From positions 77,128,001 to 77,192,000 of the forward strand of contig OX597814.1 in NCBI GenBank assembly GCA_951406725.2: DNA of 64,000 nt. Reading direction: 5' to 3'. The position numbers and the translations under genes are program-made. This document shows positions 28,174 to 44,570 of the stretch, piece by piece; position 1 is the first letter of the stretch, and each line of letters starts with the position of its first letter. Under the pieces are notes generated by a model. That model was not told the DNA's origin. It ran no database searches and saw nothing but the letters and a program-made list of their open reading frames with translations. Origin of the DNA: Octopus vulgaris (taxonomy: Eukaryota).

Positions 28174-29262
28174 CTGAAACGAATAGAAAATGCAGAAAAT
28201 ATTATACTGTTCTCGAAATGCGTTTGCATAAGACCTGAAATCTCAATATATTTATTTGATGTTAATTTATTTATATGCCATTAATACCGTTGCTAAAAAG
28301 GTACATCTAATCTTTTTCTGTTCTTAATGGTGTGCACTTATAATTTAAATTTAACTTATTTTAACTTTTCTTTTTGCAAGAACGTCAGTTAGAAGCGTGT
28401 ATTAAGTGACAGACTAACCGAAAGTCTGTCGTGTTACAACTTAGAGGTAGGGCAGTGCTTTTGGCCTCTACTGAGGATGTCCAACACTGGTGTCTTGAAG
28501 ATATATTCAGAATGGTGACATGTTAGCACTAGTGTCGGTTCTACGAAAAGTTTCTGGTGGTCAGATGAGCGAAATTAAATTTGGCATCGCAAATGAATTG
28601 AGTTTACTGGGGACGATAAGAAAAATACTTCGATCCTCTACTCTATAGTGAGTTTGACGTGTGTGTACAACTATCTTACGTTTCTGAATCTCATTCTGCA
28701 ATTGAAATTAGCAAATGAGAAAAAGGTGTTCTCCAGCGTGCATTTAATAGGTTCGCTGACGAGTGTTACAAGACAGGGATGAGAATTTGTGCTGTGAAGA
28801 TTGAGGCTTTAGTCATCTCAAAACAGCCTTTCCAGCACATTCTCTTTGTTTATAGAATATCCTTGAGATAGGTGGAGAAGTTTAGGTGAAGTTCCACGAT
28901 TTATGGAACGCAGGAGGCTGAACTGGACGTTAGAATTACTGGTACTGTCACAGAATGCACTAGCACCAGCAATCGATCCTCAGAAGAGAGGAAATGTTAG
29001 CAAAAATACCAAATTGAATTTCTTTAATTCGTGTTACACGCCTTTCCTCATATATGTTGGTTAATGACCACAAGAATACAATCGCAAATACAAGTGATCA
29101 CAAAAGAGTTTCCTTTGAAAGGTTCCGAAGTAACATTAAACGAAAGGTTGACTAGCAAGGACTTCATGGTCGAGCCTCTATTTCTCCGCCTTCAGAGGTC
29201 ACAGCTCTAGTACGACAGATCTGTTTAGAATGTTGCAAGAAATAATCGCAAGAGGTGTGTTC

Positions 29263-31150
29263 TGCGCTTGTTGTGACAGTTCTCAAGGATCATACGATTG
29301 ATTAGCCGTTGATCTTTGCATCCGTAAGAGCCTCGGCGGCACCCTTTTTGTTCGATGGGGAAAATATCGTTCTTCTCCATGAATGCATATGTTTTCTCCG
29401 CCAGGATAGATGTTAGGATTTTATACGTGGTGGATAGACAGGTTATAGGCCGATAGTTTTTTGGAAGGTTGGTTTCGTTATTCTTTGGGAGTAGGTAAGT
29501 AATGCCACTTACTAACCATTCTGGTGTTTTCTTTGGGTCTCTCATAATTCCATTGAGCAGCTGAACTAGCTTACCGTGTGCGCATGGGAGCGATGCGAGC
29601 CAGAAATTCGGCACCCTATCTTTACCGGGGGATTTCCAATTATGGGCCTTCGTGAGTGCCTTTCTTAGGTCTGCTATTGTGATGTCTTCCCATGCTTGTT
29701 GTTGTAAATTTTGGTAGGATCCTTCAATTTGTATAATCCAGTCTGCATTTATGTTGTACGTCTTCTTGTCACTCCAAATCCTTTTCCAAAAGTTTTGAAC
29801 TTCTTCCATGGGAGGGGGTCTTTAACGGTTACTTTCTCCTTCCCTATTTCTCTGTAGAATTTTTGGGCATTGGATGTGAACAGCTTATTTTGCTTGTAAA
29901 ACTTGTTTCTCTTCTCAAATCTTCATATTCTTTGGGCTTTTGCTTGGATTTTTGTTTCAGCGTTTCTTTTATTGATATCAGTTCTTCTCTTGGTGAGGAT
30001 CCAAATTTTCTCTTCATCTTTCTTCCTGTTCTGGATCTTACATCATTTCCACATATTAGTTCATTTAATATTGATATTTCCCCCTCTCATAAATTCAATC
30101 TCTTTTTCAATTTTACTTCTCCAGGTTTGATTTCTTCCCAGGTTTTGTTTTCTTTGTTTTTTCGGGGGCATACAGCTGGTTTCAATTGCCCTAGCAGAAG
30201 CGTAAATAATTTCATTTAACTCAGTAAAATCAGGTTTTAATTCTCGTATTATTTCATTTGTTACATAGTTGCCAATTTGGATTTGTTTTTTATTTTGGTT
30301 TGTATTTGAGAGTTTATGAAGTGGTTCTCTATCATTCATACTTGTATGTCTTACAACTTCAAGCGTATTCAGGATTTTCTGCCTCATTTCTGCCATAGAC
30401 TCTCTGCGTTCTTCAGCAAATGCGAGATCTTCAGTTACTGTTGTTTTTTCGTTTTCCTGGCTATCTTTAACAGGTACAATAGAATTTCTTGTATCTTCAG
30501 GCCTTTGCGTACTTTGGTCAGGTGGCAGTCTTTCAATTAAGCCTCGTGGCGGGCTATACTGTTCATCTGATTCTTCATTTCCTTTGTGTCTTATATTTAT
30601 GTCATTTTCCGTTGCGTGCTTGATCGCGCTTATTTCACTGTCTGTGAGCCTGTTATTTCTAAGGATATCCCTCCTCACATTTGCTAATTTGTTCTCGTCC
30701 AAATAGGGCCTACTGTCTTGATTCCGTGTTCTCCATATACTGTAAGAGTTTGCGGTGTGTCTCTCTTGAGATGGCCTACCTAATGCATAGTAATAAGCGT
30801 ATATTACTTCTTTATACTCTTCTCGGGTCCATTTGTTCCGCTTACATTTTTCCTTCTGTGGTGGTTGTGGTGGAGAACTTGGAGGGCTCGAGTTGGGGGA
30901 TTTCCCGTTCAAGTGACCATCCATGTCCGTATTCGGAGAAGAGTTTGTGCCAGTTGATGACTTTTCGATCCCAGGCTGACTCTTCCCTGGGGGACGCGCT
31001 TCCAGATTAACCATAGGACAAGCGATTTGGTATACTGATTTAGTTTTCCTTTTAGTTTCCAAAAACATTTTGGTGCTACGATAATGTTATCATTTTTTAG
31101 CTTTGGTTGGCTCGTGAGGAGACGGCCATCATTGCCGTTACAATTATAAT
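29263..31150 (-). mobile_element. 5' half of an R4/Dong LINE, cut off inside RT
   Basis: Myb-like KRNKWTREEYKEVIYAYY, then NWKSPGKDRVPNFW, NYRPITCLST.YK and EQKGCRRGSYGCKDQ; ends abruptly at the inverted-duplication junction. Confidence 0.88.
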
Positions 31151-32179
31151 CGTACCATTATAGCAGCCGTAGTCGGCTTATTATTGTTATCATCACCATT
31201 ACTATCACTATCATCATTATCACCACCATTACCATCATCGTTATCATCATCACCATCACCATCACCACCATCATCATCAATGATATTGTTTTATGTGTAG
31301 TCACAGCAGTATCTTATTATTGTTATTTTTGTTTTTTTATCATTATCACCATCACAGTAGTGTCTGTCTGTCTCGTTGGCTGGCTTGGTGGTTGGCTAGC
31401 TGACTGTCTTCAACGCCAGAGTTCTTGCCTGTCAAGTAATACTTTCATATTTGGTTAACAATAGAGCGGAGATGAGGTTTGTGTTGGTTGAACTCTTTGA
31501 GTGTGTGTGTAGATAGATAGATAGATTATCAGCACTATTACTATCATTATTATCATCATCACCATCAGTGATATTTTTTTCTTTTTTTTTTTTTTTTTTT
31601 TTTTTTTAGGTGGGGTCCTGTCGGTCAAAAAAAGTTCAGATGTTTACTACTATTAGGCTTAGGAAAAATTAAGGAAGGGATGTTCTGTATTGTTTGTGAA
31701 TAGAGAAGTTGTGTTCGACCAGAGAGAATCTTAGCATCATCATTTTTTTTCCATGTGCGTTTGTGTTATTGCAATAAAAAGTGTTTGTATATTTCGTGTA
31801 AGGTAATATTGTGGAGGTTGAAGTTGACTTTTCTAGAGATGTTTGTACGTCCGGTTAGAAGAACAGGTGTGTTTTTGCAATAAAAAGTATATGTTTACAT
31901 TTATATTTGAATATTCAGGGAGGAAGCAAAGAAAAGTCAGATTTTCATAGAAAGTTTTATTATTAACATTATTATTATTATTATTATTATTATTATTATT
32001 ATTATTATTATTATTATTATTATTATTATTATTATTATTATTATTATAATTATTATTATTATTATTATTATAATTTTTATTATTATTATTATTAAGGCGG
32101 CGAGCTGACACAATAATTAGGACACCCTGCAAAATGCAAAAATAACTCGTATTACACCCAACATATGTGAATGTATTCG

Positions 32180-42664: not shown

Positions 42665-43269
42665 ATATTTGGCATATATATATATATATATATATATCAT
42701 TGGGATATCCCAGAAACAGCTGTAAGACTTTGAATTTGTCCAATAATGAAAATAATGGCAGATGATTGCCTTACCTTAACGTTTCTTGTCCTCTTTAACA
42801 ATTGTATATCCGCTATATTGGAAATCTACAATGACCCCGAAACTACCGTCTCGGCTATAACCTTGGAGCCCTAGTAATTTGTTGAAGCGTACTTAATCGT
42901 CTAGATCAGCTCGTTTAGAGAAACTCCCATATTTTGTGTTTGTGTGTGTGTGTGTGTGTGTGTGTGTATGTGTGTGTGTGTGTGTGTGTGTGTGTGTGTG
43001 TGTGTGTGTGTGTGTGTGTGTGTGTGTGTGTGTGTGTGTGTGTGCGCGTGTGTGTATACTACGGGCCCAAATTTCGTTGCAACTATCAATCTCGAAATGT
43101 TTAAATTAATCACCAACGACATTAGCCACTCTGAGAAGGTCTGCGAATGTTAAGGGTGCAGTCACTTCTCTTTAGAATACACAAAATACTTAAAACGCGT
43201 GCATTTAAAATGTGAAAACTGGAATCATTGTTGTTTATAGGACAGTATCCTGTTTTGTTTCATTGTTTT

Positions 43270-44300
43270 CTTCTCCATCCATCCATCCAGCCAAATTTTC
43301 CAGCCATTAATCGTGGAAGGGTTGCAGCAGTAGATTCCTCGGGTATCTCTTCCATAAGGTCCTGTTAGAAGCAACCGCCGTTAGACCTTCCGGTTGACAC
43401 CAGCCTGAACAATTGACACTATAGATATTATACAGCCATTTTTTCCCTCGGTCTACCCCTACGCCTCTTGCCAGTTGGCGCGGCTTGAACACACCTCTTG
43501 CAATTATTTCCTGCAACATTCTAAACAGATCTGTCGTACTAGAGCTGTGACCTCCCAAGGCGGAGAAATAGGGGCTCGACCATGAAGTCCTTGCTAGTCA
43601 ACCTTTCGTTTAATGTTACTTCAGAACCTTTCAAAGGAATCTCTTTTGTGATCACTTGTATTTGCGATTGTATTCTTGTGGTCATTAACCGACATTCATG
43701 GTCATATATGAGGAAAGGCACGTAACACGAATTAAAGAAATTCAATTTGGTATTTTTGCTAACATTTCCTCTCTTCTGAGGATCGATTGCTGGTGCTGGT
43801 GCATTCTGTGACAGTACCAGTAATTCTAACGTCCAGTTCAGCCTCCTGCGTTCCATAAATCGTGGAACTTCACCTAAACTTCTCCACCTATCTCAAGAAT
43901 ATTCTATAAACAAAGAGAATGTGCTGGAAAGGCTGTTTTGAGATGACTAAAGCCTCAATCTTCACAGCACAAATTCTCATCCCTGTCTTGTAACACTCGT
44001 CAGCGAACCTATTAAATGCACGCTGGAGAACACCTTTTTCTCATTTGCTAATTTCAATTGCAGAATGAGATTCAGAAACGTAAGATAGTTGTACACACAC
44101 GTCAAACTCACTATAGAGTAGAGGATCGAAGTATTTTTCTTATCGTCCCCAGTAAACTCAATTCATTTGCGATGCCAAATTTAATTTCGCTCATCTGACC
44201 ACCAGAAACTTTTCGTAGAACCGACACTAGTGCTAACACATGTCACCATTCTGAATATATCTTCAAGACACCAGTGTTGGACATCCTCAGTAGAGACCAA
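43270..44300 (-). mobile_element. Old RTE (Rex3/Expander-like) relic in intron 1
   Basis: YVPFLIYDHEC..MTTRIQSQIQ..VEPLFLRLGRSQL and a (GATG)n-type tail. Paralogous at about 28450-29262 and 63720-64000. Confidence 0.6.
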
Positions 44301-44570
44301 AAGCACTGCCCTACCTCTAAGTTGTAACACGACAGGCTTTCGGTTAGTCTGTCACTTAATACACGCTTCTAACTGACGTTCTTGCAAAAAAGAAAAGTTA
44401 AAATAAGTTAAATTTAAATTATAAGTGCACACCATAAAGAACAGAAAAAGATTAGATGTACCTTTTTAGCATATAAATAAATTAACATCAAATAAATATA
44501 TTGAGATTTCAGGTTTTATGCAAACGCATTTCGAGAACAGTATATTTTCTGCATTTTCTATTCGTTTCAG

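Follow-up and report, generated by a model that had tools for sequence, protein, structure and literature searches.

The octopus locus described here most likely records a recent tandem duplicate within a gene cluster (copy A) that was broken by a single inversion, rather than a switch. The window, by which we mean the whole 64,000-nucleotide stretch of Octopus vulgaris DNA that was analysed, had been read in a first-pass annotation as a flip-flop, in which recombination between two inverted intron arms would turn a spacer with one promoter and signal exon towards either of two alternative second exons. The crossover geometry of that proposal holds, but its layout is explained by a one-off inversion and a somatic switch is without support. 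The layout needs no switch because an orphan first exon, complementary parts of an intron and two halves of a LINE fit a duplication followed by an inversion. The arms are probably a by-product of this rearrangement, with no regulated switch.

A cluster of two-exon CBM14-like genes

As judged from sequence, the locus appears to be an Octopus cluster of two-exon genes for predicted secreted CBM14-like proteins, with chitin binding also predicted. Its genic features are the following.

1-8155, + strand: direct duplicate (copy A) of the gene B upstream region, promoter, exon 1 and intron start; matches 33707-41898 and exceeds the left end of the window
7571-7649, + strand: copy A exon 1; 26 codons, signal-peptide-like, phase-1 donor
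25851-29262, - strand: inverted copy of the gene B intron end, exon 2 and 3' flank; matches 43487-48162
27995-28173, - strand: coding part of the left exon 2; one CBM14-like domain, 58 codons then TAA
28174-29262, - strand: left arm, a 3' part of the intron; its start is homologous to paralog C at 63928
33707-41898, + strand: gene B upstream region, promoter, exon 1 and intron start; duplicate of 1-8155
41314-41392, + strand: gene B exon 1, the single exon 1 of the earlier reading; signal-peptide-like, phase-1 GT donor
43487-44570, + strand: right arm, the 3' part of the gene B intron; continuous with ancestral intron at 43104-43486
44571-45079, + strand: open frame of the right exon 2; two CBM14-like domains with Thr-rich linkers
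45080-48162, + strand: domain repeats 3-5, which stay untranslated, then the 3' UTR, which contains a tandem repeat of 4x103 nt, and flank shared with the left block
62546-62652, + strand: exon 1 of paralog C, the third gene that the cluster has on this strand; its N-terminus is LOC106869474-like

Rather than the single exon 1 between two exon 2s that had been proposed, three copies of exon 1 lie in the window, all on the + strand (7571, 41314 and 62546). The coding part of the copy at 7571 is identical to that of gene B at 41314-41392 (0 of 80 nt different), and the 200 nt upstream of exon 1 hold 6 differences between copies A and B. The direct duplicate as a whole reaches 97.6% over 8229 columns, with 81 substitutions in 7412 aligned nt once microsatellites are removed. 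The copy A exon 1 is an orphan: no + strand exon 2 follows it before 44571, and tblastn for domain copies returned only 27809-28171 (- strand) and 44573-45553 (+ strand), leaving copy A without a + strand exon 2 of its own. The splice join between exon 1 and exon 2 of gene B is also present in the O. vulgaris models P0003 and P0005, both of which carry the identical exon 1 sequence, and in a loose end of the putative-RNA run X11.

Octopus proteins built of CBM14 (peritrophin-A) repeats include CAI9715379 and CAI9715380 of O. vulgaris, LOC118763085 of O. sinensis and LOC106869474 of O. bimaculoides, and they share with this locus a signal-peptide-like exon, 4-cysteine CBM14-like repeats and Thr-rich linkers. 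They differ in domain number, which is 1 and 2 here, 3 in P0005 and 3-4 in the O. bimaculoides isoforms. All these named relatives are annotated as uncharacterized or hypothetical, chitin binding being only a prediction for them too. Among papers searched outside their supplements, where proteomics tables could name these proteins, none was found to name the accessions or loci of the family, and none to treat octopus genome inversion polymorphism together with haplotype.

The CBM14 or peritrophin-A family (PF01607) has six conserved cysteines; the left domain has four. Against the CBM_14 profile the left single domain scores E=5e-4 and 20.6 bits (cut-off 22.1), with CBM_14 as its first match in the atlas at 0.90, and the right exon scores E=1.2e-7 and 32.2 bits, above that cut-off. 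Other Pfam matches, to Toxin_15 (E=0.11), Thyroglobulin_1 and others, lay below the cut-off and were taken as chance.

The two exon 2s are phase-compatible, as had been claimed, each being preceded by an intact ...TTTCAG acceptor. The right exon, earlier credited with several domains, does hold more than one, but an in-frame TAA at 45077-45079, inside the third repeat, leaves two whole domains and a stub. Nor is the single-domain exon an independent alternative: it is the right exon minus a 618-nt in-frame internal deletion. The start of the O. vulgaris model P0005 resembles the left domain and its end has the terminal motif of the left exon, so that the left exon is best seen as a contraction of an ordinary multi-domain exon. 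No short relative of the single domain was found among proteins of 31-102 aa, a result with no bearing on expression.

Inverted arms as the inner part of a longer block

Near-identical inverted arms do surround a 14.2-kb spacer (29263-43486) containing the signal-peptide-like exon 1 at 41314-41392. The alignment of the arms at 28174-29262 (- strand) and 43487-44570 (+ strand) spans 1071 nt and has 98.5% identity, with 16 mismatches and 5 indels of 1-15 nt, and the inverted repeat scores 2033 bits in blast, far beyond chance. The repeat of about 1.08 kb was thus correctly noticed, but it is the inner part of a full inverted duplication of 25851-29262 against 43487-48162 (3.4 kb vs 4.7 kb), which also takes in exon 2 and, beyond it, about 2.1 kb of 3' UTR and flanking DNA with an identity near 99%. 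The ancestral intron at the gene B side is 80% identical to paralog C at 63539-63995. At its far end the block 45080-48162 stops at a (TA)n, the site of a Penelope-like element, and between 16106-25850 and the gene B downstream region the only homology found was in dispersed repeats at 86%.

The longest perfect tract shared by the arms is 340 nt (28521-28860). By vertebrate thresholds, rather than octopus data, the arms, with 98.5% identity over 1071 nt inside a 3.4-kb block, are long and similar enough for homologous crossover, and the geometry first described is sound: a crossover in the 1.08-kb intronic arms would place exon 1 (41314) before the single-domain exon. An excess of differences (11 vs 5, p=8e-4) falls in the innermost 302 nt of the left arm, but the boundary was picked post hoc, which makes this a lead only. 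We also sought a crossover point through variants in public sequencing runs; 6 left-arm SNPs and a 10-nt deletion have the right-arm state in 4 of 4 runs, and these shared right-type letters are more readily explained by changes that only this left arm has undergone.

Divergence amounts to 81/7412 (1.09%) in the direct block, 16/1071 (1.49%) in the arm and 15/1518 (0.99%) on the 3' side, with p=0.28 and p=0.79 for the arm and the 3' side, respectively, against the direct block. On these counts the direct and inverted blocks would be of the same age. There is no sign of homogenisation, the arms being no closer than the non-inverted duplicate (p=0.28). The earlier remark that no recombinase is evident is borne out: 0 of 49 frames of at least 90 aa in 8156-43486 match a recombinase family, and the matches among them are to RT, zf-RVT and a Mos1 HTH fragment. 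A recombining factor might still be encoded outside the locus. One RSS-like sequence matched, with 3 mismatches, away from the arms.

A broken intron and an apparently split LINE

The features at the two breaks are the following.

7650-8433, + strand: 5' part of the copy A intron; matches paralog C 62656-63478, then breaks off
8434-8839, no strand: probable break zone at the left end of the inversion; contains (CA)n, an imperfect palindrome of 160 nt (8554-8714) and (AAT)n
8840-10350, + strand: 3' part of a non-LTR retrotransposon, which we take to be Dong/R4-like; aa 738-1242 of the full-length relative P0010 (tblastn 56%)
29260-29262, no strand: putative right inversion junction; 3 nt common to arm and LINE (microhomology)
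29261-30999, - strand: 5' part of a non-LTR retrotransposon of the same kind; aa 20-617 of P0010

Both halves of the broken copy are still present, with exon 1 and the 5' part of the intron on the + strand (7571-8433) and the 3' part of the intron and exon 2 on the - strand. The copy A intron is 74.5% identical to that of paralog C over 831 nt, and against the latter the two parts are collinear and non-overlapping: copy A corresponds to 62656-63478, and the left arm begins at 63928, with about 450 nt missing. A retrotransposon appears to be divided in the same manner. Its 5' part is cut inside the RT domain, at the left arm, and re-inversion puts aa 20-617 and aa 738-1242 in order. Both parts have 53-54% mean identity to 53 full-length relatives, vs 37% for the window's other LINE family. 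The 3' part at 8840, which begins after the (AAT)n, shares 97% with another copy, truncated at its 5' end, at 35992-37539; it may therefore have inserted separately and not be half of the split LINE. At the right junction, arm pieces in run contigs stop at 29262 and LINE pieces begin at 29260-29261, and loose ends at 29260 reveal the element's usual continuation.

The most likely history is that a tandem duplication of a two-exon CBM14-like gene first gave rise to copies A and B, that recombination between internal repeats perhaps next contracted the domains of copy A, and that a single inversion of about 20.5-20.8 kb (from about 8.5-8.8 kb to 29.26 kb) then broke this upstream copy. End joining of the microhomology type would account for the inversion, at the cost of ~450 nt of intron and ~360 nt of LINE; exon 1 would have been orphaned at 7571, and exon 2, now reversed at 28173, would have come to face gene B and form an inverted repeat with it. 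Gene B alone, with exon 1 and two domains, would be intact in this haplotype. The single-domain exon, having no upstream exon 1, would be silent, and the copy A exon 1 could act at most as a distant second promoter for the gene B exon 2.

Contigs from public runs

Runs were examined as assembled contigs, which cannot show absence and drop rare forms, and the comparison covered 4 of 20 carrier runs and the segment 27310-29700 only, with strand-changing joints between the arms outside its view. Among the matches listed for the 4 runs, 0 of 32 pieces bridge the arm-LINE junction, with 1566 further pieces beyond the list, an absence that contigs cannot establish. In 4 of 4 runs an arm piece ends at 29262 and the contig continues with non-LINE letters (411, 234, 174 and 140); in DNA run X1 this contig, of 2126 nt, also includes the single-domain exon. 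This is as expected of an unbroken copy A; a flipped allele explains the X1 contig equally, and merging of copies in de Bruijn contigs is a further possibility. The single-domain exon occurs with its frame intact in DNA runs X1 and X3. The reciprocal product of a flip, a multi-domain exon behind the LINE junction, was found nowhere among the matches listed.

Three different first-domain contigs are present in X3, and in X1 and X3 arm contigs are ~2.5-3x deeper than locus-specific transposon contigs, depth being weak evidence and no copy number. Transcripts of the single-domain exon (ENAKENN..SQSVLNCI), which the flip-flop reading led one to look for, did not appear: among the rows listed, 0 of 2 putative RNA runs, from other animals, have the single-domain ending, and in 2 of 2 the sequence goes on into further domains and differs at 28005-28011, in contigs that drop rare forms. 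No carrier among the 24 runs listed is recorded as RNA, which is no evidence on expression.

Alternative readings

It is possible, if unlikely, that NAHR between the arms now and then turns the 14.2-kb spacer round again in the germline, which would yield a segregating allele with the single-domain exon under the gene B promoter and joined to its exon 1. Geometry, phase, the two intact acceptors and the 340-nt perfect tract would allow it, as would the intact single-domain frame here and in X1 and X3 and the non-LINE inner flank of the X1 contig, and the 16.6-kb CTRB1-CTRB2 inversion offers a precedent (PMC6145291). However, the arms are not homogenised, the 6 SNPs and the 10-nt deletion seem private to this left arm given the right-arm state in 4 of 4 runs, no reciprocal product is among the matches listed, and an unbroken copy A accounts for the X1 contig equally well. 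It is similarly unlikely that a chance duplication and inversion produced a working exon-swap cassette, in which rare arm crossovers flip one strong promoter between one- and multi-domain versions of a fast-evolving secreted protein, as a recurrent functional inversion polymorphism in a mollusc, or at the outside as somatic mosaicism.

An assembly artefact, in which two allelic haplotypes or a chimeric read were placed in tandem with one piece inverted, is likewise improbable. The copies diverge by ~1%, a range that allelic haplotypes could show, the region is rich in microsatellites and LINEs, and the junction is bridged by no piece among the matches listed for the 4 runs. Yet two reciprocal breaks split the same two elements, the intron and the LINE, a pattern not expected of a single chimeric join; at the junction the overlap is of 3 nt, with no long repeat; and the three first-domain contigs of X3 and the deeper arm contigs of X1 and X3 also speak against it, if weakly, since depth gives no copy number. 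A programmed or somatic flip-flop selecting a one-domain or a multi-domain secreted protein is very improbable: its size and layout recall yeast flip/flop mating-type regions (19 kb; PMC5720833), the gene appears strongly expressed and the first domain has 10 changes, all in amino-acid-changing codons, but no recombinase or site signature was found in the locus, the arms have diverged with 5 indels, the left arm's inner end is the broken-LINE junction, the orphan exon 1 accounts for the second exon 2, and among the rows and matches listed for other animals the single-domain ending is in 0 of 2 putative RNA runs and the junction in none.

Significance and comparison with known systems

Under the favoured history of duplication and inversion, this is an ordinary rearrangement that is unusually legible, with both halves of the broken gene and both of the LINE still visible, and it cautions that inverted repeats around a promoter in a tandem cluster need no switch. 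If flipping were true, it would be an animal example, away from the immune loci, of DNA inversion deciding between isoforms, and a molluscan counterpart of CTRB1/CTRB2. A better lead is the uncharacterised and apparently highly expressed Octopus CBM14-like family itself, variable in copy number, domain number and first-domain sequence.

Duplication within a tandem gene cluster, followed by an inversion that breaks one copy, is a known kind of event. The octopus locus shares with it same-strand paralogs, blocks of equal age, reciprocal microhomology breaks, small losses and an orphan first exon, and differs only in an accident of the result: the inverted exon, with the end of its intron, provides a usable inverted repeat that surrounds the promoter of the gene next to it.

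The human CTRB1-CTRB2 inversion of 16.6 kb swaps promoter, exon 1 and intron 1, thereby changing the promoter from which each gene body is expressed, and resembles the octopus locus in its near-identical outward paralogs and in the similar size of the inversion that exchanges these elements (PMC6145291). There, however, both genes keep their own exon 1 inside the inverted segment and both orientations have been genotyped, whereas here one exon 1 lies inside, the other is stranded at 7571, and one orientation has been observed. In the Saccharomyces chromosome XIV flip/flop, a 10-25-kb region between inverted repeats of 4 kb recurs in both orientations across species (PMC9731477); it too has duplicated fast-evolving genes between inverted repeats and no dedicated recombinase described for it, but its repeats are continually homogenised, unlike the octopus arms, which are no closer than the non-inverted duplicate. 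In Ogataea polymorpha, inversion of a region of similar size changes expression during flip/flop mating-type switching, which is reported to be induced, reversible and regulated (PMC5720833), whereas the octopus locus shows none of induction, reversibility or conservation.

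Duplicated gene copies and the inverted block

The layout of this locus is most likely debris of duplication and inversion in a fast-changing gene cluster, a real feature that the first-pass annotation partly misdescribed. Its elements are the following.

7571-7649, +, exon 1 of copy A, a duplicate of gene B
28019-28173, -, first domain of left exon 2 (copy A)
28174-29262, -, left arm, 3' part of the intron
29263-43486, spacer
41314-41392, +, exon 1 of gene B, a two-exon CBM14-like gene, ending in a phase-1 donor
43487-44570, +, right arm, 3' part of the intron
44571-44725, +, first domain of right exon 2 (gene B)
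62546-62654, +, exon 1 of paralog C, a third gene

The inverted arms lie where they had been placed (16 mismatches and 5 indels over 1071 aligned nt) and contain a 340-nt perfect tract, but the repeat is not arm-sized as had been thought: self-alignment lengthens it to 25851-29262 versus 43487-48162, covering exon 2, 3' UTR and flank at ~99% identity. Nor is there a single exon 1, since three were found, every one on the + strand (7571, 41314 and 62546). Identical coding parts are found in exon 1 at 7571 and exon 1 at 41314, which lie in a direct duplication pairing 1-8155 with 33707-41898 (7412 nt compared, 81 substitutions). Because the divergence of the direct duplicate (1.09%) matches that of the arm (1.49%, p=0.28) and of the inverted block's 3' side (0.99%, p=0.79), one duplication event would account for both blocks. 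The two halves of copy A are orphaned: exon 1 at 7571 has no same-strand exon 2 ahead of gene B's, while every exon 1 lies on the strand opposite to exon 2 at 28173. On the paralog C intron, the 7571 copy spans C 62656-63478 and the left arm starts at C 63928; these are two parts of one intron, with ~450 nt missing.

The inner end of the left arm adjoins a non-LTR retrotransposon (LINE), presumably Dong/R4-like, that is cut within its RT (- strand, aa 20-617 of a 1242-aa relative), and beside the other break lies a 3' LINE part (+ strand, aa 738-1242). Mean identities of the two parts are 53% and 54% (53 relatives >1100 aa), whereas a second related family in the window averages 37%. Re-inverting about 8.5-29.26 kb would restore both gene and LINE. 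The 3' part is also 97% like a truncated copy at 35992-37539. Dong elements are reported to target TAA repeats (PMC3812793). TAA tracts at the locus agree with such targeting, so that the 3' LINE part could also be a separate insertion.

Several further observations concern these copies. The orphan exon 1 at 7571-7649 retains a promoter-like region and donor and could serve gene B as a second promoter by splicing across 37 kb into its exon 2. Such transcripts would be tagged by six differences upstream of exon 1 (e.g. 7550 versus 41293). Paralog C exon 1 (107 nt; its exon 2 lies outside the window) uses the donor homologous to that of A and B but in phase 2 rather than phase 1, possibly through a frameshift or base error. 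At 41899-43103, the gene B intron holds an insertion that we take to be LINE-like (no Pfam match at 1e-3) in place of an ancestral piece that A retains at 8156-8433 and C at 63170-63478. Older inverted copies, 4-6% diverged, of gene B upstream repeats (34191-35680 and 37688-38315) occupy 11772-16106, suggesting an earlier duplication round. A Penelope-like element at 48163-53100, flanked by terminal repeats in direct orientation (48163-48633, 52646-53100), is inserted in the (TA)n ending the duplicated block; its 881-residue stop-free frame contains an RT and matches GIY-YIG weakly. A second inverted pair, 18690-19052 and 22552-22914 (363 nt, 98%, 3.5 kb apart), is probably a dispersed repeat, with an 86% copy at 54329-54589. 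The spacer holds a Mos1/mariner transposase HTH fragment (32184-32477; E=1.8e-4, under the cut-off).

Coding capacity of the two exon 2s

As had been proposed, exon 2 on either side is phase-compatible with exon 1; both acceptors are intact. The left exon indeed encodes one 58-residue domain; the right, described as multi-domain, contains four to five domain-like repeats in its DNA but encodes only two whole domains because of an in-frame TAA (45077-45079). This stop falls prematurely in the third domain, where the second repeat has GAA. Relative to the right exon, the left lacks 618 nt, an in-frame deletion between first and last domain repeat. The relatives found (3 among 24 candidates) are all uncharacterised Octopus proteins, and the O. 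vulgaris models P0003 and P0005 splice this exon 1 to this exon 2. P0005 runs from a left-domain-like start through a right-exon-like middle to the left exon's terminal motif, and since it combines left-type ends with a right-type middle, the left exon appears to be an ordinary multi-domain exon that has contracted. The right exon exceeds the Pfam cut-off for CBM_14 and the single domain falls slightly under it; the atlas likewise gives CBM_14, with high confidence. The encoded proteins are predicted to bind chitin and to be secreted.

The first domains of the two copies differ at 10/155 nt, more than the intron does at 16/1071 (p=7e-4). Each of these 10 differences lies in an amino-acid-changing codon and none is silent (chance ~0.06, taking about three quarters of sites as non-synonymous), which suggests selection on the first domain, a pattern that mixing between domain repeats could also yield. 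The excess may reflect diversifying selection or domain conversion. Three first-domain variants occur within the DNA run X3, with additional ones in the putative RNA run X11 and in a further run, X19.

In the 3' UTR, both copies carry an additional degenerate domain containing a stop. A 103-nt unit is present four times in the gene B 3' region (45775-46190) versus once on the left (27437); X1 and X3 show a joint there that goes back 103 nt. Contigs from both putative RNA runs end at 27437-27438, weakly hinting at a transcript 3' end.

Public sequencing runs

The stretch is present in 20 of 24 listed runs, all as contigs. Four were compared over 27310-29700, using the 32 pieces (1566 more exist), 24 loose ends (292 more) and 40 variant rows (29 more) listed. 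The single-domain exon occurs in DNA runs of two studies, X1 (a 2126-nt contig across 27558-29262) and X3 (539 nt, one other letter, not in the coding part), and is therefore no assembly error. In all four runs an arm piece stops at 29262, the inferred right inversion junction between left arm and LINE, and the contig continues for 411, 234, 174 or 140 letters unlike the LINE; judged from their lengths, these continuations would fit normal intron. LINE pieces begin at 29260-29261, continuing in X1, X3 and X11 into more RT sequence, so that arm and LINE would share 3 nt at the junction. Of the 32 pieces listed from the four runs, none joins arm to LINE (contigs cannot prove absence), and this putative junction may be private to this haplotype.

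In the two putative RNA runs, whose kind is guessed, exon contig depth is in the thousands, versus at most 13 across most of the arm. The end of exon 1 appears in X11 as a loose end at 28174; this join does not tell left from right exon 2, because their first 44 nt are identical. At 28015 the contigs of both runs continue as in a multi-domain exon, and at 28005-28011 all of their depth carries other letters. The anticipated transcript joining exon 1 to the single-domain variant thus did not appear among the rows listed for either run, both from other animals.

Origin of the layout

Duplicated blocks, orphan halves, the broken LINE and the junction overlap are the observed basis for a reconstruction in which tandem duplication would have been followed by domain contraction in copy A, and then by a single inversion with end-joining repair and small losses at both ends, leaving gene B as the sole intact copy in this haplotype. 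The layout is probably a by-product of such a one-off inversion.

Misassembly is unlikely. That this origin was followed by recurrent germline flipping is equally unlikely. The 340-nt perfect tract would permit rare flips, and a flipped allele would likewise yield the X1 contig, with its single-domain exon and non-LINE continuation. However, the arms are not homogenised, six left-arm SNPs and a 10-nt deletion are in the right-arm state in 4/4 runs examined, and 0/49 frames in 8156-43486 match a recombinase family, in keeping with the earlier impression that none was evident. The geometry of the proposed exon 2 switch by arm recombination holds: a crossover within the intronic arms would swap exon 2, and one in the outer 2 kb would leave the coding exon unchanged. 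We regard an exon-swap polymorphism as rather improbable, and a programmed switch as very improbable indeed. Of the 16 arm differences, 11 fall within 28961-29262, the 302 nt beside the junction (a boundary picked after inspection), which could reflect error-prone repair or absence of conversion near the break.

Comparison with known systems

No paper on these locus names or on an inversion polymorphism in octopus turned up in the main texts covered, few of them from subscription journals. The locus would belong to the NAHR class of polymorphisms if a second orientation occurred. It differs from a programmed switch such as the Ogataea mating-type inversion (PMC5720833) in that its arms are not homogenised and none of the 49 frames matches a recombinase family.
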